A stretch of DNA of 64,000 nt from a virus: positions 25,261 to 89,260 of the IMG/VR virus record IMGVR_UViG_3300038465_000039; one strand, given 5' to 3'. Positions within the stretch are counted from its first letter, which is position 1. Each line of letters opens with the position of its first letter. This document shows positions 25,035-56,380 of this stretch, one piece after another. The notes beneath the pieces were generated by a model, which saw nothing but the letters and a program-made list of their open reading frames with translations, ran no database searches and was not told the DNA's origin. A program made the position numbers and the translations under genes.

Positions 25035-27520
25035 TGGCCTTCGATCCCCGCCAACTCGACGAGATACGGAGGCGCGTTCGCGTCAGCGATGTGGTCGGCT
25101 CTGTATTTCCGCTCATCAAAAAGGGGAATGAATTTGTCGTCAAAGGCAACGAGTCGTTCACGGTCAACGATGCGAAACAAGTGTGGTGCGAATTCGGATC
25201 AGGCGGCGACGGAAAGGGCCACGACGTCTTCGAATTTCTCGTCCAGAACCAAGGGCTATCGTTCCCCGAAGCGGTCGAAGAACTCGCCAGACAAGCCGGC
25301 GTCTCCCTCAAGGACGGACCTGGACGGAGTCCTGCTTCGTCTAATGGCGCTGGAACTGCATCGGCATCCCACGCTCGAATTAACGGAAGCGGAGCGGAGA
25401 GCTCGCCGACAGGTCGAGACGATAGGCCTGACAATGGTCTGGGAAAAGCTGCAGGCGGCAAGCGTGAAGTCATAGCGACATGGGATTATCTCGATCCGGA
25501 AAACACGCTGCTTTACCAAACAGTGCGCATGCAGGAACGGATGCCGGATGGCAGTTGGCGTCTTACAAAAGATCGCAAAATCTGGAAAACCTTTTTGCAG
25601 CGCCGACCGGCACCGACGCCGGGCGAATGGATTCTTGGTCTTGATGTCGTCGATCGAGAAACAGGCGAACCTCTTGAGTTTTTGAAGACGGCGACCGGTA
25701 CTGCATGGCTACGCGTAACCGATGAACGTCTGAAGTGGAACAACACTACACGGGCAACGTTCGCCGATCTCGGTAACGTCGAGCACTGGCTATACAATGC
25801 AAATGCAGTGATCGACGAACTCCAGGAACCGAGGGACGACCAGCGGACTATTTTCTGTCCCGAAGGAGAAGGAAAGGTCGATGTCCTGAAAGAGTGGGGT
25901 TTGCTTGCCGTAACCAATTCCGGCGGTGCAAAGCATTTCACCACCGCCTGCGCAGAATTCTTTAGGGGCGCAAGGCACGTCGTCATTCTACAGGACAATG
26001 ATCGCGCCGGCGCCGAGGGAGCGGCCAAGAAAGCCGCGATGCTGAAAGCTGTCGGCGTTGAACTGATACAGGCGTTGAATTTTCGCGATGTCTGGCCCAG
26101 TTGTCCGATGAAGGGCGACGTCAAGGACTGGCGCGACCATGGCGGCACAAAGGATCAGTTGCTCGAGATCGTTGACGATCTGAAGCCATGGACTCCGGAA
26201 CCCTACAAATTCAGATACGGAGCAAAGACCGCAGCCGATCTGGATGACAAACCGAAGCAGTATCCCTGGCGGATTAAATTTCTGGTGCCGCGGAATGTCG
26301 ATACGCTTATCATGGGGCCGAGCAAATCGGGGAAGACATTCGAGACGCTGAATATGTGCATGCATGTCCACTTCGGAAAGGATTACGCGGGCCGACGTGT
26401 TGAACAGGGCGGTGTTGTCTATTTGACTTATGAGGGATCTGAAGGTTTCGAAAACAGATTCCGCGCCTACATGCAGCACAACGATTTAACCAAGGCTGAT
26501 CTTCATTCGTTTGCATGGTTGACGCGACCGCCTGGCCTTTATGCGAGCGAGGATGATGCTAAGGGTGTAGCGCAGGAAATATCCGAGATCGCCAAGACCT
26601 TCCGTCTTCCGCTGTCTCATTCAGTGATCGATACTCATAACGCGGCGACCCGGGGATCGAGCGAGATCAAGAGCGAGGATTTGAACCGCATCCAGAATAA
26701 TTACGGGACCGTTCGAACCATCACGGGTTGCCCTCTCTGGATCGTCGGTCATACAAATCAGGAAGGCCGGCACCGCGGCAACGAACAGTTTTTCAACGGC
26801 ATCGATGCCGCGCTGTTGATACGCAGGCTCTACACCGATGAGAAAAAAAAGATCGAAAAGCGCGATGATGATAGGCGCGTCATTCGCCGATTGAGTTCCG
26901 ACAAACAGCGCGATGGCGACGACAACGTGAGCGTCGATTTTGTGTTGCAGCGGGTTGTAATCGGTAAGGACGAATTCGGTGACGATATCCCGTCGATGGT
27001 ATCGACTGAACCGGCGCAGAGCGTGCCGGACAGTGTTGTAGAGGAGACTACCCGGAAAGCTGAATGGCTCGACGGGGAATATCTGATGGGGAGCAATCTG
27101 GATGTCTTCCAGGCGTTGCTGCGCAGCCTTGCAAAATCCGGACAGCCGCCTCCAAAAGAACTCGGATTGTCAAATGTCCCATTGGTGGTCGAATGGTCGC
27201 ATCTCGGCAGAGAGTATAAGAAGACCGATCCGCGCGAACAGGATGAACCGATTGATAAATATCAAAATCGCATGAAGGCGAGGACGCGGCGATTCCGTGC
27301 TGACCTGCTTAGAAAAAAGGTTATAGGGGTCGCCGAGATGATCGATCCATCAGCCGTCAACGAGAATCCGGAGAAGCCGATGATGATGCATTTTATCTGG
27401 CCGACTGGACGAAGGGTTTATGGTAAAGGCCTGCAGTGGCCGCCATTGCCGAAAAAGAAAAAGGAGCAGCCGATGATTCTGGCTCCTGGCGAAACCGAAG
27501 ACGATCTTCCTCCCATATAA
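25034..27520 (+). CDS. Primase-helicase (DnaG-like N-terminus, TOPRIM, AAA_25 ATPase)
   Basis: PEGEGKVD, QDNDRAG, GDVKDW; GPSKSGKT, VIDT, IVGHT. Confidence 0.85.
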   Translation: MAFDPRQLDEIRRRVRVSDVVGSVFPLIKKGNEFVVKGNESFTVNDAKQVWCEFGSGGDGKGHDVFEFLVQNQGLSFPEAVEELARQAGVSLKDGPGRSPASSNGAGTASASHARINGSGAESSPTGRDDRPDNGLGKAAGGKREVIATWDYLDPENTLLYQTVRMQERMPDGSWRLTKDRKIWKTFLQRRPAPTPGEWILGLDVVDRETGEPLEFLKTATGTAWLRVTDERLKWNNTTRATFADLGNVEHWLYNANAVIDELQEPRDDQRTIFCPEGEGKVDVLKEWGLLAVTNSGGAKHFTTACAEFFRGARHVVILQDNDRAGAEGAAKKAAMLKAVGVELIQALNFRDVWPSCPMKGDVKDWRDHGGTKDQLLEIVDDLKPWTPEPYKFRYGAKTAADLDDKPKQYPWRIKFLVPRNVDTLIMGPSKSGKTFETLNMCMHVHFGKDYAGRRVEQGGVVYLTYEGSEGFENRFRAYMQHNDLTKADLHSFAWLTRPPGLYASEDDAKGVAQEISEIAKTFRLPLSHSVIDTHNAATRGSSEIKSEDLNRIQNNYGTVRTITGCPLWIVGHTNQEGRHRGNEQFFNGIDAALLIRRLYTDEKKKIEKRDDDRRVIRRLSSDKQRDGDDNVSVDFVLQRVVIGKDEFGDDIPSMVSTEPAQSVPDSVVEETTRKAEWLDGEYLMGSNLDVFQALLRSLAKSGQPPPKELGLSNVPLVVEWSHLGREYKKTDPREQDEPIDKYQNRMKARTRRFRADLLRKKVIGVAEMIDPSAVNENPEKPMMMHFIWPTGRRVYGKGLQWPPLPKKKKEQPMILAPGETEDDLPPI

Positions 27521-40163: not shown

Positions 40164-41465
40164 GTGGCCGGGAAGTCTGCTGGCGCGGTCCCCAACATCG
40201 AGGAATATCTCCTCGAATACGAGCGACCGTATCTCTACCCGAAACAACTCGACGCGATCTTCGACGCGCGGCGCTATAGTTGGATCGAGGCATCGACTAA
40301 GGCCGGGAAGACATCTGCGTGTATCGTCTGGATATTTGAGCAGGCGCTGCACGGCCAAGAGGGATGGAACTACTGGTGGATTGCACCGGTGTCCGGTCAG
40401 GCCGATATCGCGTTTCGCCGCGCGCTACGTGCAATACCGCAGGAATTGAGGAACGAAAATCAGACTCTTAAGACGATCACGCTGATCAACGGCGCGGTGA
40501 TCTGGTTCAAGTCGGCCGACAAGCCGGACTCGCTTTACGGCGAAGATGTCTATGCCGCTGTGATGGATGAGGCGAGTCGCACCAAGGAAGATGCTTGGTA
40601 CGCTGTGAGATCGACTCTGACAGCAACGCGCGGACCGATACGCTTGATTGGGAATGTGCGCGGGCGCAGGAATTGGTTTTATCAAAATGCTCGGAAGGCC
40701 GAGCGCGGCGAAGATCCAAACCACGGTTACCACAAGATCACCGCAGTCGACGCGATAGCTGCGTATGTCCTTGAGCAGGAAGAGGTCGACGACGCGCGCA
40801 AAGTTCTGCCCGAGGCGGTCTTCAAAGAGCTCTACCTCGCTGAGCCATCCGACGATCAAGGCAATCCGTTTGGCCTGAAGGCGATCGCAAGGTGCGTTCA
40901 GCCGATGAGTGCCGGCGCCATCCCGGTGGTGCATGGTCTCGATTTTGCGAAATCGCAGGACTGGACCGTCGACTGCGGTCTCGATGAGCACGGCCGTCTT
41001 GCGAAATTTCTTCGCATGCAGATCGGATGGGAAGCGCAGATACCGATCTTGCGGGCATCGATCGGCACGACGCCGACGCTCGGCGACTCGACCGGTGTCG
41101 GCGACCCGATTATCGAACGCCTGCAGAAGGCTCCAGGCTCCAAGGTCGAGGGCTACATCTTCAGCCCGGGATCGAAGCAGCGGCTGATGGAAGGTCTCGC
41201 GCTCGCTATTCAGTCCGGCGACGTCTCATTTCCGGATGCGCCCGACGGCGTACTGCCGCACGATCATCCCGGCCACATACTTCGCGAACTGGAAATGTTC
41301 GAATACGAGTTTACCCGGACCGGCGTCCGCTATTCTGCGCCGGCCGGATACCATGATGACTGCGTCATGGCGCTTGCGCTGGCGGTCATGCACCGAACCC
41401 ATGCGAGGCTACCGATGAAGATCAGCAAATCGGTTCTTGCCAGAGCGCAGGGCGGTCGCCGGTGA
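40164..41465 (+). CDS. Terminase large subunit
   Basis: Walker A STKAGKT, VMDEA, GLDFAKSQD, DSTGVGDP, HDDCVMALAL. Confidence 0.93.
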   Translation: MAGKSAGAVPNIEEYLLEYERPYLYPKQLDAIFDARRYSWIEASTKAGKTSACIVWIFEQALHGQEGWNYWWIAPVSGQADIAFRRALRAIPQELRNENQTLKTITLINGAVIWFKSADKPDSLYGEDVYAAVMDEASRTKEDAWYAVRSTLTATRGPIRLIGNVRGRRNWFYQNARKAERGEDPNHGYHKITAVDAIAAYVLEQEEVDDARKVLPEAVFKELYLAEPSDDQGNPFGLKAIARCVQPMSAGAIPVVHGLDFAKSQDWTVDCGLDEHGRLAKFLRMQIGWEAQIPILRASIGTTPTLGDSTGVGDPIIERLQKAPGSKVEGYIFSPGSKQRLMEGLALAIQSGDVSFPDAPDGVLPHDHPGHILRELEMFEYEFTRTGVRYSAPAGYHDDCVMALALAVMHRTHARLPMKISKSVLARAQGGRR

Positions 41466-43978
41466 CAGTCACCCGCTACAAGCGCGACCGGTCCTCGGAT
41501 GCCATTAGGGACGCCGTGATGGGCGTCATTCGCCACAAGCGCGAAGCACAGCCGGCTGAGACCGCGAAGCCGGCGCCCCCCGCAGGCGATCTGAAGGCCC
41601 GTTCGGTGGAGGACCTGGAGAAGCACCACGCCGAAGTCGTCGCTCCGATGAAGATTAGCCCGACCACGTTGGCGCTCGCCAGGTCGAAGCGACGAGCGGG
41701 TGCCATCCAGGAGCAGGCTATCCGCAGCTCGTTCAAGGCTTATGAACCGCCACCGAATGTCCTGCCGAGTGGTGCTAAACCGGACATGGCGCTCGATAGC
41801 GGGCTCCAAGGCTGGGCTGAAACATCGGCAACGAATGCGTGGAACTTTGCTGGCGCGTTCAACAATTCCTTTGCGGAGGGAATAGGCTTTCTCGGCTACG
41901 CGTATCTTTCACAACTCACTGAACGTCCGGAGTACCGTCGAATCTCGGAACGCATCGCGATCGAGATGACGCGGAAATGGATCAGGCTCACGGTCTCAGG
42001 CGAGGCCGATCCGGAATCGGAGGGTGGCGACGACGACGCGAAAGCCAATGATGGCTTCGGTTACGATCGCCAGCCCGATGCTGATCTCGATGATGAGGAG
42101 CAAGACGACGCGGATGGTGCCGGCGGTGCCGTGGCTGATTTTGACGACGATCAAGATGATGAACCTACACCGGAAGAAAAGGCCCAGCGGAAACGCAACG
42201 AGGCCCTTCAGAAAAAGCTGAAGGAAATCGATGCGGACATGAAGCGCCTCGATGTCCGCGGCAAGTTCAAGAGCATCGCTGAGTTCGACGGCTGGATGGG
42301 CCGTTCACACCTCTACATCGATACGGGTGATGGCGACGATCCCGATGAACTGAAGAGCAACCTCGGCAACGGCAGCGATGATATCAGCAAGGGGAAGTTC
42401 AAGAAGGGTTCACTTCGGAACATAAAGAACATCGAAGCGATCTGGTGTTATCCGGTCAACTACAACGCCAACGATCCTCTTGCTGATGATTGGTACAATC
42501 CGCAGGTCTGGTTCGCGATGGCGAAGCAGATACATGTTTCCCGACTACTGACATTCGTTGGCCGGCCATTACCGGATATTCTCAAACCGTCATATGCGTT
42601 CGGCGGCTTGTCGATGTCGCAGATGGCGAAGCCTTATGTCGATAATTGGCTGAGGACACGCCAGGCCGTTACGAACCTGATTGAATCGTTCTCGACGAGT
42701 GGCGTCTACACCAATGCGCAATCCTTGCTGCAGGGTGGTGGTGAAGAGGTTCTCGACCGTATCGAGATGTTCAATGCCAATCGATCCAATCTCGGATCGA
42801 TGGTGCTCGATAAAGAGACCGAGGAGTTCTTCAATATTTCGACGCCGCTCGGGACGCTCGACCAACTGCAGGCGCAGAGTCTTGAGCAGTTGGCTGTGGT
42901 TTCCGGCATCCCGCTTATCGTGTTGCTCGGAATCTCGCCCCATGGGCTCAACGCCACATCGGAAGGGGAGCTCAGAACATTTTTTGACCTCATCCACGCG
43001 ATGCAGGAAAACCTGTTCCGGGACAAGCTGAAACGAGTCATCGACTTCATTCAGTTGCACCTCTACGGCGAAGTCGACCCAGCGATCGGCTTCGAGTTTG
43101 AACCGCTATGGTCACTCGACGAAAAGGGCGAAGCCGAGGTCCGCAAGATCAAAGCGGAAACGCACATGATCTATGTCGACGGTGGCATATTCGGTCAGGA
43201 GGAAGTCCGCAATATCGAGATCGACGACGACGACAGTCCATACAACGGTCTCGATCCCGACGACATGCCAGATCTTCAGGCCGAGGAAGATGCCGGCCTC
43301 GTGCCTGGCGGCGGTTCATCCGAGGGCGGTGAGGGTGGCAGCAGTCGCGCCGACAACAAGGAAGTCGATGGTGCGGCAGATGAACTGCCTCTGATTGCTA
43401 TCGATGCGGCTTTCAACGAAGCCGACCATCCGCGCGCCGACAACGGCGAGTTCGGCGAGGGCGGCGGTGGTAAACCCAAGAAGGCCCGGCTTACGCCAAC
43501 TGAAAAGTCCTATCTCGATAGTTACAGCGGTGATGACTTTCTCAAACTGAACGAGAAGCTGCGATCCGGGGAAGACACTGGCGCTGCGACGGCAAAGATC
43601 GATTCGGCGATCTCTAAATCGACCATTGAACCGGGCACGAAGCTATATCGAGGTATCAGCAAGGACGCGCTCAAGAAGCTTGTGGCCGGCGATAGCATCG
43701 AAGCCGGTCAGGTTTTGTCTGATGCCGGTTTCTTATCTACATCGTCCAGTCGCGATATCGCCGGCATGAATAGCATCGGTGGCGCACTCATAGAAATTGA
43801 AGTTGGTCAAGGCCAAAATGGTCTCGATATGTCAGAAATCAGCAGGAACAAGCACGAGAAAGAGGTTATCCTCCCGCGTAATTCGAAGATGAAGGTTCTC
43901 GGTCTCCGTGCTCCGAAAAAGCCCGGCGATCCAATTATCGTTCGAGTGGCGACCCATAATGAGGAGGAAGACTCATGA
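41462..43978 (+). CDS. DUF1073-type portal protein fused to a C-terminal ADP-ribosyltransferase domain
   Basis: EYRRISE...EMTRKW, IHVSRL, SGIP..LLG.SP.GLNATSEG; ART LNEKLR, LYRG, FLSTS, HEKEVILPR. Confidence 0.85.
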   Translation: MTVTRYKRDRSSDAIRDAVMGVIRHKREAQPAETAKPAPPAGDLKARSVEDLEKHHAEVVAPMKISPTTLALARSKRRAGAIQEQAIRSSFKAYEPPPNVLPSGAKPDMALDSGLQGWAETSATNAWNFAGAFNNSFAEGIGFLGYAYLSQLTERPEYRRISERIAIEMTRKWIRLTVSGEADPESEGGDDDAKANDGFGYDRQPDADLDDEEQDDADGAGGAVADFDDDQDDEPTPEEKAQRKRNEALQKKLKEIDADMKRLDVRGKFKSIAEFDGWMGRSHLYIDTGDGDDPDELKSNLGNGSDDISKGKFKKGSLRNIKNIEAIWCYPVNYNANDPLADDWYNPQVWFAMAKQIHVSRLLTFVGRPLPDILKPSYAFGGLSMSQMAKPYVDNWLRTRQAVTNLIESFSTSGVYTNAQSLLQGGGEEVLDRIEMFNANRSNLGSMVLDKETEEFFNISTPLGTLDQLQAQSLEQLAVVSGIPLIVLLGISPHGLNATSEGELRTFFDLIHAMQENLFRDKLKRVIDFIQLHLYGEVDPAIGFEFEPLWSLDEKGEAEVRKIKAETHMIYVDGGIFGQEEVRNIEIDDDDSPYNGLDPDDMPDLQAEEDAGLVPGGGSSEGGEGGSSRADNKEVDGAADELPLIAIDAAFNEADHPRADNGEFGEGGGGKPKKARLTPTEKSYLDSYSGDDFLKLNEKLRSGEDTGAATAKIDSAISKSTIEPGTKLYRGISKDALKKLVAGDSIEAGQVLSDAGFLSTSSSRDIAGMNSIGGALIEIEVGQGQNGLDMSEISRNKHEKEVILPRNSKMKVLGLRAPKKPGDPIIVRVATHNEEEDS

Positions 43979-45072: not shown

Positions 45073-45693
45073 ATGAAGATTGTTACACTAGTCGAGGCTC
45101 GCAATACCCTGTCCAAACGGTATTTTACTGGAGTCCCCTGCAAGCGCGGGCACATAAGCGAGCGCAGAACGAGCACAAGGGCTTGTATCGCATGTTCCAG
45201 TTTCCATCGAGAGCAGAACGGTGATCAACACCGCTTTGCATCGCGAAGATGGGCTGCAAATAACAAGGAACGCGGAAAAGCTAACGGCATTAGGTGGCGG
45301 GCTGAGAACCGAGACTTAGTTAAACAAATAAGGCGAAATTGGTACGCTCTAAATTCCGCAAAGTGCGTGGCTGCCACCTTAGAATGGGCGAAGAAAAACC
45401 CGGAGAAGCGAAGCGCCACTGAGCGCCGACGCAAGGCGAGGAAGCGCGCCGCCGGGGGAAATCATACTGCCGACGATGTCGTTGAATTGTACAGGCTACA
45501 GCGTGGCAAGTGTGCTCATGCGTGGTGCAACGTATCCCTAAAACCTGGTTATCATGTTGACCACGTTCAGCCGCTAAAACGCGGCGGATCGAATGATCGG
45601 TCTAACATTCAGTTGCTTTGTCCTAGTTGCAATGTTCGGAAAAGCGCATCTGACCCGATTGAGTGGGCGCAGCGTCATGGACTCTTGTTGTAG
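45073..45693 (+). CDS. HNH homing endonuclease
   Basis: YFTGVPCKRGH; HVDHVQPLKRGGSNDRSNIQLLCPSCN. Confidence 0.9.
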   Translation: MKIVTLVEARNTLSKRYFTGVPCKRGHISERRTSTRACIACSSFHREQNGDQHRFASRRWAANNKERGKANGIRWRAENRDLVKQIRRNWYALNSAKCVAATLEWAKKNPEKRSATERRRKARKRAAGGNHTADDVVELYRLQRGKCAHAWCNVSLKPGYHVDHVQPLKRGGSNDRSNIQLLCPSCNVRKSASDPIEWAQRHGLLL

Positions 45694-49726: not shown

Positions 49727-51652
49727 GTGCCAGTAAAATCTGCGGCGCAAAATCGGGCAATGTGGGCCGCAAGAGAAGGACGCTCGACTTTGGGAATCCC
49801 CAAGTCTGTTGCGAAGAAGTTTGTCGGTCCATCTGCCCATGACGCAGCCGGTGCCAAGATCGCTGCCGGGATCATCTTCGTTTCGCCTGATGGTGATGTT
49901 CTGCTGCTGAAGCGTGCCGGCGAGGAAGGCGTCGACAACTACGTCGGACATTGGGCGCTGCCTGGTGGTGGTGCTGAGGATGGTGAGACGCCGGAGCAAT
50001 GCGCGGACCGAGAAGCGGCCGAGGAGCTCGGCGGAGCGGCGCCGGTCGGACGCAAGCGTCTGGTCGACCGCAAGACGACACCGAACGGGATGGTGTTCCA
50101 TACCTTCGCTCAGCAGTCCGACAAGTTTACACCGAAACTGAACGAGGAGCACTCGGCCTTCGGATGGTTCCCGCTCAATGCTTTACCGGGGCCAGAAAAC
50201 GATCATGCACCGGAACCGATGCATCCCGCCGTCAAGGCGGTTCTATCGGATGGCCTCGGGATGGCTCAGGACATGTCGCCCGAGGACTGGACCGCACTGC
50301 GGGAGAACTTCGCAAAGTGGACCCGCGAGGAAGAAGCGGAACCGGAGCATGCCGGGGACGTGAATGCGGTGGTCACGACCGTCCGCAACGATGAAGGCGT
50401 GATCCTGCTCGATACTTCGGATGGCAAGACGGTGGAACTTGGCCGGGGACTCGCCGACGACAACCAGCCGCAGCTCGCCACCACGGGGAACACAGGCATC
50501 CCACTGGCGGCTTGGAACAAGAAGCGGAAGGCAAAGATCGCTCAGGATGCCATTTTCCGGGCCTGCGGAGGCCAAGGATGCGTTAAATGTGGTGGGTCCG
50601 GGGTATCGCCCCTGACCAAGGCACCAATGAAGCCCGGGCTCGGTGGGGCTTTTGATGCCTTGTCACCCGCCATCGCCGCTTGGAACCGGATGGCAGACGC
50701 CGAAGCCGCGCGCGCCCGCAAACCGAATGCCTGCCCGATCTGCGGCGGTACCGGTGAGCTCGCCGGGCCCGGCATCATCTGCGATGAATGCGGAGGCTCA
50801 GGCCTGATCGCGCAAGACAGCCGCAAGGCACCGGAACACACGCTGCTGGTGCGCTACGACGGCGATTTCAGCTTCAAGGGGCTGCTCGCACATCTGAAAC
50901 GGCTTGGTTCGATCGGGGCCTCGCGCACGATCGAGGCGCGCGACGAAGACGACAAGATCGTGCCGTTCGGTTGGGATGGCGACGGCGCCGACAAGATTTG
51001 GGATGCCGAGATAGACGGCGAGAAACTCGCGTTTGATCGCGCGGCGGTGTCTGGCGTTGAGCGCCATGGTCTAGCATTTGACCGCGCGCCGGATAGCGCG
51101 CGCAAGTTCGATGCTGACGGACGAATGCATGTCGAAGTTTCCAATATTTCGCGCGCAGCAGTTAACCCGTATTTAGGTCGAGAAATACCTTCATACAAAT
51201 CGCTCGGTCTTGATCCGGATAAAATCTATCATTTGCTTCGCGATCCCGAGGAACTTCAAAAAGCCGTTCCGACATTCAACAATCTGCCGCTGCTTGACGA
51301 GCATGTGCCGGTTTCAGCAGCAAGCCATCGACCCGAGCATGTCATCGGATCACTCGGCACGGATGCTGAATTCGACGGCGAATTCTTGAAGAATAGCCTC
51401 GTCGTCTGGACGGAACGCGGCATCAAAGCAATTGAGAGCGAGAAGAAGCGCCAAATTTCATGCGCCTATCGCTATACGCCGGTGCTCGAAACCGGCGTAT
51501 TCAAGGGGCATCCCTACTCCATAAAAATGACGGCCATAATCGGAAATCATGCCTGCATAGTGCCCGAGGGGAGGGCTGGCGACATGGTGATGGTTGCGGA
51601 TGGAGCTCTTGATCCTTGGGCTTTGGTAGAATCTGCTATTTTAGGTCTATAG
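49727..51652 (+). CDS. Polyprotein: Nudix hydrolase, small modules and DUF2213 putative prohead protease
   Basis: Nudix box GGAEDGETPEQCADREAAEELG; ISRAAVNPYLGREIP, LLRDPEEL, ISCAYRY, NHACIVPEGRAG. Confidence 0.85.
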   Translation: MPVKSAAQNRAMWAAREGRSTLGIPKSVAKKFVGPSAHDAAGAKIAAGIIFVSPDGDVLLLKRAGEEGVDNYVGHWALPGGGAEDGETPEQCADREAAEELGGAAPVGRKRLVDRKTTPNGMVFHTFAQQSDKFTPKLNEEHSAFGWFPLNALPGPENDHAPEPMHPAVKAVLSDGLGMAQDMSPEDWTALRENFAKWTREEEAEPEHAGDVNAVVTTVRNDEGVILLDTSDGKTVELGRGLADDNQPQLATTGNTGIPLAAWNKKRKAKIAQDAIFRACGGQGCVKCGGSGVSPLTKAPMKPGLGGAFDALSPAIAAWNRMADAEAARARKPNACPICGGTGELAGPGIICDECGGSGLIAQDSRKAPEHTLLVRYDGDFSFKGLLAHLKRLGSIGASRTIEARDEDDKIVPFGWDGDGADKIWDAEIDGEKLAFDRAAVSGVERHGLAFDRAPDSARKFDADGRMHVEVSNISRAAVNPYLGREIPSYKSLGLDPDKIYHLLRDPEELQKAVPTFNNLPLLDEHVPVSAASHRPEHVIGSLGTDAEFDGEFLKNSLVVWTERGIKAIESEKKRQISCAYRYTPVLETGVFKGHPYSIKMTAIIGNHACIVPEGRAGDMVMVADGALDPWALVESAILGL

Positions 51653-51733
51653 AAAGGTGATATAAAAACGGGACCGAACAGCGTTGGACGCGCTGATCGA
51701 TCCCTGACCAAGTGCGCTGGATGAGAACGCAAG

Positions 51734-52453
51734 ATGGCTAAAGAACAAATCCCATACTCTGGGCCTATTGTCACCAAGGCTGAAGCAAAGGCCGCCGGTG
51801 CCAAGAAGTATTTTACAGGCAAGCCCTGCATCCGGGGACATATCTCCGAGAGGTGGGTGAGCACGCGAACTTGTGTTGGGTGTGCGACGTCTGAGCCGAG
51901 GCTTAAGGCTGATCTAAAATACAGGTCGAGTCATAGAGAAGAAATTCGTGAGAAGACCGCAAGGTGGCGGGCAGAGAATCCTGAGCGAACGAGACAATCT
52001 TTAGCCGATTACTTTGCGGCGAATGAAGAGCAGATCAATCAGCGCAGACGCGATGATTATGCGGCAAATGCTCCGGCCAAGCGACTAGAGAAGAGAGAGC
52101 GGTACGCCGCCGATCCACTGCATTACCAGGAAATCAATCGGCGGTACGCCGAGGAAAATCCCGAAGTAATTAGAGCCATCAGGCGTAACCGTCGCGCTCG
52201 CAAGAGAGGCGCTGGCGGTAGCCATACAGCCGCAGATATCGAGTGGTTACTCAACAAACAGAAAAATAAATGCGCGCACTCATGGTGTCGCATCTCTTTG
52301 GCTGATGGTCACCACGTAGATCATATGGTGCCGTTAGCGTTAGGTGGTTCCAATGACCGCAGAAACATTCAACTGCTCTGCGAGCCATGCAATCTGAAAA
52401 AGCACGCAAAGCACCCGATAGACTTTGCGCAGGAGCATGGCTTGCTCCTATAG
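51734..52453 (+). CDS. HNH homing endonuclease (paralog of 45073)
   Basis: YFTGKPCIRGH; HVDHMVPLALGGSNDRRNIQLLCEPCN. Confidence 0.9.
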   Translation: MAKEQIPYSGPIVTKAEAKAAGAKKYFTGKPCIRGHISERWVSTRTCVGCATSEPRLKADLKYRSSHREEIREKTARWRAENPERTRQSLADYFAANEEQINQRRRDDYAANAPAKRLEKRERYAADPLHYQEINRRYAEENPEVIRAIRRNRRARKRGAGGSHTAADIEWLLNKQKNKCAHSWCRISLADGHHVDHMVPLALGGSNDRRNIQLLCEPCNLKKHAKHPIDFAQEHGLLL

Positions 52454-52463
52454 GGGCGAATCC

Positions 52464-53543
52464 ATGAGCAAGCTTCGTGATGCACTCCGCAAGAAATTCA
52501 AGACTCCTCGTGAGGCCATTCTGGCGCTCGGTCTCGACGAGTCACTCCTGACTGAGCGCGCCTATGATTCCGTGAACCCTCAACTGAAGGAGAAGACAAT
52601 GCAGAAGATCAAACTGTCCGGTCTCGGCACCGTAGCCTACGGCGCTCTGATGACCTTCCTGCGGCCGCAACTGGCGATGGATCAGACCATCGATCTCAAG
52701 CGTGGTCTGCGCAACATCAACGCCAGGAACTTCAAGGCCAAGCGTCCCGTACTGGCGGCGTGGATCAGCGAGTCCGTCAAGGACAAGCTCGATCCGCAGT
52801 TCGCGCATGATGGTGCGCTAAATACCGACGGTCTCGATGCTGTCCTCGACATGGTCGAACTCGCCCTCGACGATTTTCCCGAAGAGATGAAGGAAAAGAT
52901 GGACGAGAAAAAGGACAAGGCCAAGGACATGAAGCCCATGGCCGGCGCCAAGGACGAGGAATCCGACGAGGATTCCGACATGGATGCCGAAGACGAAGAC
53001 GAGACCGAAGAGGAGAAGGAGGCCCGCATGAAAAAGCGCGCCGCCGACAAAAAGGCCAAAGACAAGAAAATGGGCAAGGACAAGAAGGCCAAGGACAAGG
53101 CCGATGTCAACGAGGATCCCGAAGAGCACGATCCCGAGACACCCGAAGAGACCGCCAACGACGAGGACGACGACATGGAAGCGGCGATGGATGCAAAGAT
53201 CAACGCCGGTATCCAGGCCGGCATCAAGAAGGAGCGCGACCGCATGGAGGCCATCTCGGTCGCCAAGGATCATGTCCGTTCCCGCGTCGGCAATCTTTCC
53301 ATGGCGTTCGATTCTGCGGCTCAGGTCTACGCCAAGGCCATCGAAGTCGCCGCCGGCAAGAAACCGCCGAAGGATGCGAATGTCGAAATGCTGAAGTTCG
53401 CATTCGACAACCTTCCCTCGAAGGATGGTGGCCGCAACAAGCAGACCTACGCGATGGATTCGGCGCCGAGCACCGCGGCGAGTGATCTCGCCAAGCGCAA
53501 TCCTGCTCTTGCGAAGAACCTGGAGCGCATCGGGCGCCAGTAA
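52464..53543 (+). CDS. Putative scaffolding protein
   Basis: Highly charged, between protease and capsid genes; many A-x-D motifs. Confidence 0.7.
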   Translation: MSKLRDALRKKFKTPREAILALGLDESLLTERAYDSVNPQLKEKTMQKIKLSGLGTVAYGALMTFLRPQLAMDQTIDLKRGLRNINARNFKAKRPVLAAWISESVKDKLDPQFAHDGALNTDGLDAVLDMVELALDDFPEEMKEKMDEKKDKAKDMKPMAGAKDEESDEDSDMDAEDEDETEEEKEARMKKRAADKKAKDKKMGKDKKAKDKADVNEDPEEHDPETPEETANDEDDDMEAAMDAKINAGIQAGIKKERDRMEAISVAKDHVRSRVGNLSMAFDSAAQVYAKAIEVAAGKKPPKDANVEMLKFAFDNLPSKDGGRNKQTYAMDSAPSTAASDLAKRNPALAKNLERIGRQ

Positions 53544-53721
53544 CCGAGCGACGCGGCTTCCTCCGCTCGTTCGTCGCAGCCTGTCCGTTTGAGCCCACCC
53601 CTGTCCCGACGGGCAGGCTGCGTTAATTCAACAACCCTCTTTCCTTGATTGGATCGGGGGATTTTTTACATTACACTGCTCCCGTTCATTGCCTGATAGG
53701 CAGAAGGGGATCAGCCAAAAA

Positions 53722-54087
53722 ATGTCAATCACAGACGCATACTTTGCCGGATTGATCGACGGCGAAGGTCACATCACGTTAGAGAAAAGGTCTGGTAAAC
53801 AAGTCGGGACTATCCCGCTCATTCAGGTTGGCATGACTGATCGTGCGATTGTGCAGTTGCTCCAAAAAACTTACGGCGGAAGTTTTGCAGCAAAGAAGAT
53901 AAGAGAACCCTACAAGCAGATGTTCGTTTGGCGCGTGAAGCATGCACAAGCTCGCGTTACTTTGAAACGAATCCTGCCATATCTTCGCGTAAAACGTGAG
54001 GTTGCTCTTACCGTCTATAAATTCGCGTGCGAACGACGTGCATGGATTAGACAAAATACCGGTCGGACGAATTCTATCTCTGTCTGA
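53722..54087 (+). CDS. Single-motif LAGLIDADG endonuclease, free-standing
   Basis: AYFAGLIDGEGHI...ILPYLRVKR. Confidence 0.85.
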   Translation: MSITDAYFAGLIDGEGHITLEKRSGKQVGTIPLIQVGMTDRAIVQLLQKTYGGSFAAKKIREPYKQMFVWRVKHAQARVTLKRILPYLRVKREVALTVYKFACERRAWIRQNTGRTNSISV

Positions 54088-55276: not shown

Positions 55277-56380
55277 ATGAATCGCCATGAAGCAGCTGCC
55301 GCGTATGCGGCCGAACGCCACATCTACGAGTCCAGCGGTGCGGTATTCGAAAACGTCAAGATGTTCATCCCCGACGGATGGAAACACGACTTCAACCTCG
55401 CGATGGATCAAGGCCTCGCGATGGACGCGCAGCCTCAGTTGTCGACGACACAGAACACCGGTATTCCGGTTTGGCTGTCGACGATGATCGATCCCACGGT
55501 CTATGAGATTCTGTTCTCCCCGCTGAAGGCCGCCGAAATTCTCGGCGAAGTGAAGAAGGGCGACTGGACCTTGAATTCCGTGATGTTCCCGACCGCGGAA
55601 CACACCGGCGAAGTCTCGAGCTATGACGACTACGTCAACAACGGTTCGGTTTCCACCAACCTGAACTTCCCGTCACGCCAGCCGTACCTCTATCAGACCA
55701 TCCTTCAATACGGTGACCGCGAGCTCGATGTCGTCGGCCTCGCCAAGATCAATTGGGTATCGGAACTGAATGCGGCCGCGGCCTGGGCACTGAACCGCTA
55801 TCAGAACCAGACCTACTTCTTCGGGGTGAAAGGTCTTCAGAATTACGGCATCCTGAACGATCCGAACCTGACCGCCGCACTGACGCCCGGACCGAAGGCG
55901 TACGGCAACAATCTGTGGATTACGAACGGCATCATCACCGCAACGCCGAACGAGATCTATCTCGATATCCAGGCACTCATCCTGCAGCTGATCCTGCAGT
56001 CCGGCGGCAACATCAATCAGGAATCGCCGTTCGTGCTGGCGCTTTCACCGGCATCGAAGTTCGCGCTGACCGCAACGAACTCGTTCGACGTCAATGTCAG
56101 CGACTTGCTGAAGCAGATTCCGAACCTGAAGATTATCGATGCGATCCAGTATCAGGCTCAGACGACGGCAAACCCGCAGGGTGTTGTCGGCGGCAACTTC
56201 ATGCAGATGATCTGCACCTCAGTTCGCGGGCAGCAGGCCGGCTTCTGTGCGTTCAACGAGAAGATGCGTTCCCATCGTCTGATCCCCGACCTGTCGTCGT
56301 GGAAACAGAAGCTGAGCGGCGGCACGATGGGTGCTATTTACCGGCAGCCCTGGTGCGTCAGCAGCATGTTGGGTATCTGA
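55277..56380 (+). CDS. Major capsid protein (DUF2184-like)
   Basis: AMDAQP..., GEVKKGDW, SYDDY, YFFGV.GL.NYG.LNDPNL. Confidence 0.88.
   Translation: MNRHEAAAAYAAERHIYESSGAVFENVKMFIPDGWKHDFNLAMDQGLAMDAQPQLSTTQNTGIPVWLSTMIDPTVYEILFSPLKAAEILGEVKKGDWTLNSVMFPTAEHTGEVSSYDDYVNNGSVSTNLNFPSRQPYLYQTILQYGDRELDVVGLAKINWVSELNAAAAWALNRYQNQTYFFGVKGLQNYGILNDPNLTAALTPGPKAYGNNLWITNGIITATPNEIYLDIQALILQLILQSGGNINQESPFVLALSPASKFALTATNSFDVNVSDLLKQIPNLKIIDAIQYQAQTTANPQGVVGGNFMQMICTSVRGQQAGFCAFNEKMRSHRLIPDLSSWKQKLSGGTMGAIYRQPWCVSSMLGI

Follow-up and report, generated by a model that had tools for sequence, protein, structure and literature searches.

A copy of the capsid junction in a phage cargo-protease polyprotein, and its possible role in head loading

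In bacteriophage T4, internal proteins and the enzyme Alt carry a capsid targeting sequence (CTS) that is removed by the gp21 prohead protease; this CTS binds the scaffolding core and is not known to resemble the mature capsid N-terminus. Encapsulin cargo-loading peptides are C-terminal and are not known to copy the shell protein or to involve a protease. How passengers are addressed to phage heads has been worked out in detail in only a handful of systems, chiefly T4, whose cargo-type enzyme Alt is reported to be packaged and injected (PMC5512222); in P22 the scaffold binds the capsid N-terminus, as stated in PMC11456595. Here we describe a 64,000 nucleotide stretch of viral DNA (positions 25,261 to 89,260 of IMG/VR record IMGVR_UViG_3300038465_000039, called the window below) in which a polyprotein that joins a NUDIX hydrolase to a DUF2213 prohead protease contains a near-copy of the first residues of the predicted mature capsid protein, together with the cleavage-like site that precedes them. 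We suggest, tentatively, that this peptide helps to address cargo to the procapsid.

The peptide and the capsid junction

The comparison concerns seven features (positions are those of the window):

49727..51652, + strand: cargo-protease polyprotein, 641 amino acids (aa), GTG start, beginning MPVKSAAQNRAMWAA...; NUDIX and DUF2213 by Pfam
50450..50464, + strand: LADDN, a cleavage-like A-x-D-x site directly 5' of the peptide, aligning with LAMDA of the capsid and lying in a segment (residues 241-274) of low model confidence (pLDDT<50)
50465..50503, + strand: QPQLATTGNTGIP, the capsid-tip copy, residues 247-259; 11/13 against the capsid, found by BLASTP and by profile scan
50504..50551, + strand: basic tail LAAWNKKRKAK, then IAQDA (the next A-x-D, residue 272), end of a module of ~30 aa
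55241..56380, + strand: major capsid protein (phrog_264, E 5.6e-62), with its probable true start at ATG 55277 (MNRHEAAAAY)
55415..55429, + strand: LAMDA, predicted capsid maturation cleavage site, aligning with SAMDS/N66 of E217 and Pa193 (the slash marks the presumed cut)
55430..55468, + strand: QPQLSTTQNTGIP, the 13 residues with which the mature capsid protein is predicted to begin

The two peptides agree at 11 of 13 residues, in the contexts ...GRGLADDN-QPQLATTGNTGIP-LAAWNKKRKAK... (the longer stretch 3' of the peptide reads LAAWNKKRKAKIAQDA) and ...QGLAMDA-QPQLSTTQNTGIP-VWLSTMIDP..., respectively. When the whole polyprotein was compared with the whole capsid protein by BLASTP, a single significant segment was returned (15/25 identical, 20/25 positive, E 6e-6 for this one comparison), and the likeness also spans the upstream side, G-L-A-x-D. 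The 13 codon pairs comprise 3 that are identical, 8 that are synonymous but different and 2 that are non-synonymous, with agreement at 26 of 39 bases. Different codons thus stand at 8 of the 11 shared residues, a pattern that excludes recent gene conversion and supports maintenance of the motif at the protein level. A profile of the capsid motif, scanned against the 1,749 six-frame open reading frames (ORFs) of the whole 89,260-base contig, found only these two copies (19.9 and 16.9 bits), the next-best score being 8.0 bits in an ORF of 57 aa. The near-copy, its position and its many differing synonymous sites had all been noted in a preliminary description made from the letters alone, and each holds, as does the label of protease polyprotein used there, which agrees with the Pfam assignments and with the PHROGs annotation 'head maturation protease'.

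That description also spoke of the mature capsid N-terminus, which fits the homologues and which, for this phage itself, we infer from them. The capsid protein matches solved Pseudomonas phage capsids (Pa193, 9b40_A, E 1.5e-19; E217, 8frs_B, E 2.5e-19), and its score against Pfam PF09950 is 24.7 bits, below the 26.8 cut-off. The E217 chain in 8frs has 317 residues and aligns from residue 75 of the window capsid; counted back, its first residue, N66, follows SAMDS, the counterpart of LAMDA. In E217 the first 65 capsid residues are reported as invisible, possibly cleaved or disordered (PMC10329688), and likewise the first 30 of XM1 (PMC10457771). Among 125 related capsids the tip has the consensus QP.L.T..N.GIP, and AMDA stands immediately ahead of it in 87 of them. 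It is a reasonable inference from these alignments that the mature protein begins right after LAMDA.

Carriers, cargo and ancestry

A search with residues 205-455 of the window polyprotein gave 42 proteins, of which 16 score at least 8 bits for the motif and a further four have weaker copies recognised by eye; scans of genome, viral and metagenome collections added 158 loci. Distinct carriers number 24. In 14 the copy is N-terminal, lying in the initial 13 residues (M-QPAMSTSANSGIP, for instance), and in 10 it is internal, with D at position -2 in all but one of the latter (9/10). At least two K or R occur within the next 14 residues after 21 of the 24 copies, and an A-x-D within 30 residues downstream of 21 of 24. 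Put in these terms, the recurring unit is a module of ~30 aa consisting of a putative cut site or an N-terminus, the capsid-tip copy, a basic tail and a further putative cut site. A tblastn search with 50432-50626 against 50,697 phage records (E up to 1) had no match, the query being a weak one (65 aa with a 13-aa core).

The motif is restricted to proteins that bear cargo. Among 119 DUF2213 proteins it is never seen where the N-terminal extension measures at most 150 aa (58 proteins) and occurs in 22 of the 61 whose extension is longer, and the cargo domains of carriers are NUDIX, Acb1 (anti-CBASS) or ADP-ribosyltransferase (ART). In one relative (L081) it directly follows AKDM in a NUDIX cargo protein encoded on its own, and the adjoining protease-scaffold gene has no motif; it therefore goes with cargo and not with the protease as such. 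A search for further stand-alone carriers (query P0010 residues 1-60) returned two proteins, both on contigs of at most 2.3 kb and probably truncated. Acb1 (PF23474) is fused to DUF2213 in P0016 (E 4e-37) and P0011 (E 2e-31), and also at L067:3613-4878; from this arrangement, virions may come with Acb1 already packaged. A 2026 preprint reports that CBASS is activated by prohead proteases (PMC12991175).

Carriers also tend to lack a scaffold domain fused behind the protease. In 115 distinct complete proteins the fused scaffold tail is absent from 19 of 21 carriers, as against 5 of 94 non-carriers. When only cargo proteins are counted, the numbers without and with the tail are 19 and 2 for carriers versus 5 and 31 for non-carriers (Fisher p 1e-8, a value that ignores phylogeny). 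On a FastTree tree of the protease domain (119 rows) the carriers fall in at least three groups.

The closest comparison is with relative L139. Homology between it and the window resumes exactly at 50453, the start of the module, and the two share the peptide, the scaffold (96% aa identity) and the capsid tip (39/39 bases), with protease domains only 47% identical; the motif is therefore independent of a particular protease lineage. The exchanged segment runs from 51043 to 52463 (L139:6722-7662), 47% identical in aa against 85-93% nucleotide identity in the flanks, and DUF2213 prohead proteases appear to be interchangeable. Two further segments are found in the window only, 50350-50452 (a three-strand mini-domain before the peptide) and 50647-50806 (a helix and the second zinc finger), and their borders coincide with A-x-D sites.

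To compare each copy with the capsid of its own phage, eight polyprotein copies from seven lineages were ranked against 88 distinct capsid tips. The own capsid ranked 1 for the window and L139, which count as one lineage, and 1 in a three-way tie for L136; it ranked 3 for L121, 4 for L063 and 25 for L149, copies that come from a loose regular expression and are possible chance hits. At the variable positions, copy and own capsid read NTG/NTG in the window, SSG/SSG in L136 and NSA/NSA in L003. Such matches suggest a shared reader or repeated copying, shared descent being the alternative, and the motif tends, in part, to track the capsid variant of its own phage. A partial tip copy possibly exists in a third kind of carrier as well: the scaffold of the lineage of L137 (11676-13028) and L062 has TDPNSGIP in its acidic region, and the capsid tip of that lineage is TDPNAGIP.

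Polyprotein architecture and head genes

Besides the peptide, the polyprotein consists of a NUDIX domain, disordered linkers, two CxxCxGxG zinc fingers, a small domain and the DUF2213 prohead protease. Its remaining parts, and the scaffold encoded downstream, are as follows:

49859..50200, + strand: NUDIX hydrolase domain, residues 45-158, presumed cargo; PF00293, E 5e-19; pLDDT 87-97
50564..50602, + strand: first CxxCxGxG-type zinc-finger motif, CGGQGCVKCGGSG, read from the sequence
50732..50803, + strand: second zinc-finger pair, CPICGGTG...CDECGGSG, then LIAQDS; segment absent from L139
50843..51016, + strand: conserved small domain, ...GDF..GLL.HL..LG.IGASR...FGWDGDGADKI..., 74% mean column identity in the alignment
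51023..51094, + strand: linker with two LAFDRA sites before the protease domain; pLDDT<50 at residues 435-454
51101..51601, + strand: DUF2213 prohead protease domain, residues 459-625; Pfam E 3.9e-45; phrog_2229 E 2.6e-81; pLDDT 95-98
51614..51649, + strand: C-terminal amphipathic helix, DPWALVESAILGL, characteristic of proteases that have no scaffold tail; helix at residues 630-638 in the AlphaFold2 (AF2) model
52464..53543, + strand: separate scaffolding protein, 359 aa from MSKLRDAL, with an acidic centre and A-x-D sites

The start of the polyprotein is supported by relatives that begin MP.KS.AQ.RAM. Its N-terminal module, MPVKSAAQNRAMWAAREGRSTLGIPKSVAKKF (49727-49830), recurs at the start of many relatives; in L067 a module of the MPVKSAAQNRAMWAAREGRSTLGIPKSVAKKF type comes directly after a capsid-like peptide, and the module also contains GIP. 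The NUDIX domain scores 69.1 bits with PF00293 (cut-off 21.1) and has an intact Nudix box, GGGAEDGETPEQCADREAAEELG, in which we read by eye the pattern G-x5-E-x7-RE-x2-EE-x-G. The first zinc-finger motif may resemble the DnaJ cysteine-rich repeat. The small domain, for which Pfam gave no match (50843-51016), has strands and one helix at residues 373-429 of the AF2 model, and with its invariant FGWDGDGADKI it directly precedes the protease in most peptide-bearing polyproteins. In the protease (PF09979, 154.3 bits, cut-off 22), three residues stand out across 120 sequences: H526, which never varies, and S578 and H608, each conserved to at least 90%. In 113 sequences all three are invariant; they are candidate catalytic residues, which we liken to a His/Ser/His triad.

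A-x-D sites punctuate this protein at residues 243, 272, 308, 362, 435 and 450, all of them in linkers with pLDDT<50. In 86 scaffolds, five A-x-D columns reach a conservation of at least 90%, and LAFDR belongs to the consensus of the protease family, just before the protease domain. A-x-D is likely, from this conservation, to be the cleavage motif of the family's prohead proteases. The residues downstream of the other conserved sites, in scaffolds and in the linker before the protease, are unrelated to the 13-mer; cleavage as such therefore does not need it. The AF2 model of the polyprotein, built on a 120-row alignment, has a mean pLDDT of 75.6, with folded NUDIX and protease domains and low-confidence linkers. 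The peptide and its basic tail lie within the segment 241-274, below 50, as is usual for short linear motifs.

The head genes are ordered terminase (TerL), portal with a C-terminal ART, HNH, MuF, polyprotein, HNH, scaffold, LAGLIDADG-like, decoration and capsid, so that the DUF2213 gene lies between portal/MuF and scaffold/capsid genes, as expected for a prohead protease. The scaffold ORF matches positions 204-419 of the 428 in the phrog_2229 profile, its second half, and its start at 52464 was deduced by comparison with L137. The portal (41462-43978; Phage_portal_3, E 9e-72) ends in an ART domain (PF03496, E 5e-20) that follows IAIDA and a linker, FNEADHPR..G.FG, and the same linker motif precedes the cargo modules of three relatives (P0002, P0004, P0041). 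In Burkholderia phage BcepNY3 (L001, 4249-6336) the portal protein ends in a NUDIX domain, and among related phages NUDIX cargo thus shifts between two carriers, the portal and the protease.

Three genes resembling homing endonucleases lie amid the head genes (51734-52453, 53689-54087 and 45073-45693; two HNH and one weakly LAGLIDADG-like), the first two of which are absent from the L139 head module, otherwise 92-93% identical. We considered whether a protease-scaffold gene had been split by an HNH gene and rejected this, because in L055, L136, L137 and L139 the two genes are separate and adjacent without any HNH; for the same reason the HNH gene of the window occupies a pre-existing gap.

Proposed role and comparison with described systems

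The reading we favour, if tentatively, is that the mimic of the capsid junction serves as a signal both for loading injected cargo into the procapsid and for cleavage, the cargo being NUDIX here and Acb1 or ART in relatives. The peptide would be a short linear motif that copies the A-x-D-x cut site plus the first 13 mature residues, and whichever component of head assembly recognises the capsid junction inside the procapsid would read the motif too, the separate scaffold or the inner shell being the favoured candidates. A polyprotein without a scaffold tail of its own would enter the procapsid via the motif; the DUF2213 protease would then cut DN/QP and the other A-x-D sites, and these cuts would release NUDIX within the head, ready to be injected along with the DNA. 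The preliminary description had proposed a docking tag or an assembly modulator, which this reading follows in spirit, the motif being maintained and tied to the capsid junction; the partner that would read it did not emerge from our analysis. It had overlooked the GLA-D-x cleavage side, the polyprotein context punctuated by A-x-D, and the N-terminal placement in most relatives.

This reading must be tempered by several results that weigh against it. The sampling is biased, since 41 of the proteins were picked up for resembling residues 205-455 of the window polyprotein. A fused scaffold is still present in two carriers (L003, P0019), and five proteases without a tail have no motif. The link between the motif and loss of the scaffold tail may be shared ancestry: on the best tree the peptide trait changes only 7 times, 2 of these changes being forced by starred branches, the traits are clustered, and an independent-pairs sign test had too few pairs to reach significance. 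An amphipathic helix ends 26 of 28 proteases without a scaffold tail and could be the real procapsid-targeting device instead of the motif. In the own-capsid test L055 and L003 rank a mediocre 21 and 23, so that the test proposed in the preliminary description is passed in part: 24 distinct proteins do carry the peptide, and co-variation with the capsid is seen at rank 1 in two lineages and is weaker in these two. The E217 and XM1 capsids only lack density for their first 65 and 30 residues, and cleavage at A-x-D is itself a predicted step. In Pa193 a retained scaffold fragment is reported to contact the capsid A-domain and not the N-terminus (PMC11456595). AF2 of the whole polyprotein gave no docking of the motif on NUDIX, zinc fingers or protease, and in an AF2 model of L003, where peptide, NUDIX, protease and scaffold form one chain, residues 1-11 have pLDDT<50; as models of binding in cis, these neither support nor exclude binding in trans. 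A prediction of the complex between the scaffold and polyprotein residues 236-285, run without controls, scored 0.00, which is no answer and is counted neither way. Because no partner was found, ancestry confounds the comparative signals and the helix offers an alternative, we keep our confidence in a loading and cleavage signal somewhat short of even.

The motif might instead be a substrate determinant only: the protease would read residues downstream of the capsid cut, and the copy would let the NUDIX junction be cut with the same efficiency and as early as that of the capsid, with no part in loading. The copy does keep both sides of the capsid site (GLA-D-x/QPQL), in a disordered linker, with aspartate at -2 in nearly all internal copies, and the capsid 13-mer is conserved across the 125 capsids alongside a conserved protease. 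Yet the 14 N-terminal copies of 24 have nothing upstream to cut, so that the 13-mer is not merely half of a scissile site; other conserved A-x-D sites are followed by unrelated residues, the window and L139 share peptide and tip across 47% identical protease domains, and the basic tail after 21 of 24 copies is left unexplained. The N-terminal copies, the unrelated residues and the basic tail, along with the restriction to cargo proteins and the loss of the scaffold tail, argue that the 13-mer does more than complete a cut site, and we consider this explanation unlikely, if a serious contender. A related thought is that the peptide sits as a pseudo-substrate in the cleft of its own protease or of the one in an adjacent polyprotein, keeping the protease quiet while in the cytoplasm until capsid junctions in the procapsid displace it, and that it could in this way dodge host sensors that respond to prohead-protease activity. 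N-terminal copies without a scissile bond do retain the downstream residues, anti-CBASS Acb1 is fused to the same polyprotein in relatives, and prohead proteases are reported to trigger CBASS (PMC12991175); but in L081 the cargo protein with the motif is distinct from the protease, and the in-cis models show no docking on the protease domain, which leaves this explanation improbable.

The preliminary description had also raised a decoy for a capsid-sensing defence protein, which would here be a host protein that recognises the capsid N-terminus. The likeness itself, and the counter-defence type of the relatives' cargo domains, are all that favours such a decoy, for which nothing in our analysis, which took in no defence gene, speaks; the motif is tied to features of head assembly (A-x-D sites, cargo, absence of the scaffold tail) and after processing would be inside the capsid, and we regard the idea as very improbable. 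Least credible of all is the view that part of the capsid gene was copied here by duplication or gene conversion and has persisted as a neutral relic. The borders of the module are indeed recombination borders, as at 50453, where homology with L139 resumes, but the residues have been kept while synonymous sites were scrambled, and the 24 carriers span three contexts and several lineages.

A wider claim, that this portable module of ~30 aa is a general packaging signal which loads counter-defence enzymes (NUDIX, Acb1, ART) by imitating the assembly handle of the capsid and is then clipped by the co-packaged protease, and would so be both a natural and an engineerable label for HK97-fold capsids, is in our view doubtful. 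If the capsid N-terminal junction is indeed copied as an address, this would be a new and simple addressing principle, would explain how NUDIX, Acb1 and ART are pre-loaded for the first seconds of infection in a mostly uncultured phage group, with prophage relatives in soil and plant-associated Proteobacteria, and would provide a short tag with which proteins could be loaded into HK97-fold capsids. Whatever the mechanism, both the A-x-D grammar seen across the family and the conserved His/Ser/His residues yield predictions on which the uncharacterised DUF2213 protease can be tested.

Like the T4 CTS, the motif is a short peptide beside a putative prohead-protease site on enzymes that would be packaged and injected, and in most carriers it is N-terminal; unlike the CTS, it copies the capsid junction, can be internal, as in the window, and stands on a polyprotein containing the protease, and by this description we set the two apart. 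Encapsulins offer a parallel in that enzymes enter their HK97-fold shell by means of a short peptide at one terminus. In phiKZ-like phages such as SPN3US, one protease motif punctuates the propeptides of many head proteins, ejection cargo included; the shared element there is a short cut motif, however, and a copy of mature-capsid residues is not described in the relevant parts of the same papers (PMC7411985, PMC10052503). Closer in cargo are the effectors fused to MuF or portal proteins and the 'polyvalent proteins', in which ART, 2H phosphoesterase and NUDIX-linked enzymes ride on head components for delivery (PMC5512222). The window and its relatives, with NUDIX, Acb1 and ART fused to DUF2213 and with ART on the window's portal, belong among such head-fused effectors; they differ in that the carrier is the prohead protease and that the attachment includes a capsid-like peptide, which goes unmentioned in the passages of PMC5512222 on these fusions. 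P22 resembles our case in that the N-terminal region of an HK97-fold capsid protein is a handle for procapsid assembly (PMC11456595), which would explain how its copy could load a passenger, although the visible scaffold fragment of Pa193 touches the A-domain instead (PMC11456595). DarA and Hdf of P1 are likewise counter-defence proteins held inside the head and released with the DNA (PMC12810830), but they are described as folded proteins at penton-hexon junctions on the inner capsid surface, with no capsid-mimic peptide and no polyprotein in that account (PMC12810830). Our searches of the literature on DUF2213, head proteases and cargo targeting turned up no capsid-tip copy on cargo or protease proteins, and by title and abstract the DUF2213 papers held nothing on cleavage specificity. 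Signals that target cargo to phage heads, and signals for cleavage within them, are thus known; what is new at this locus is a proposed signal that copies the capsid's own junction.

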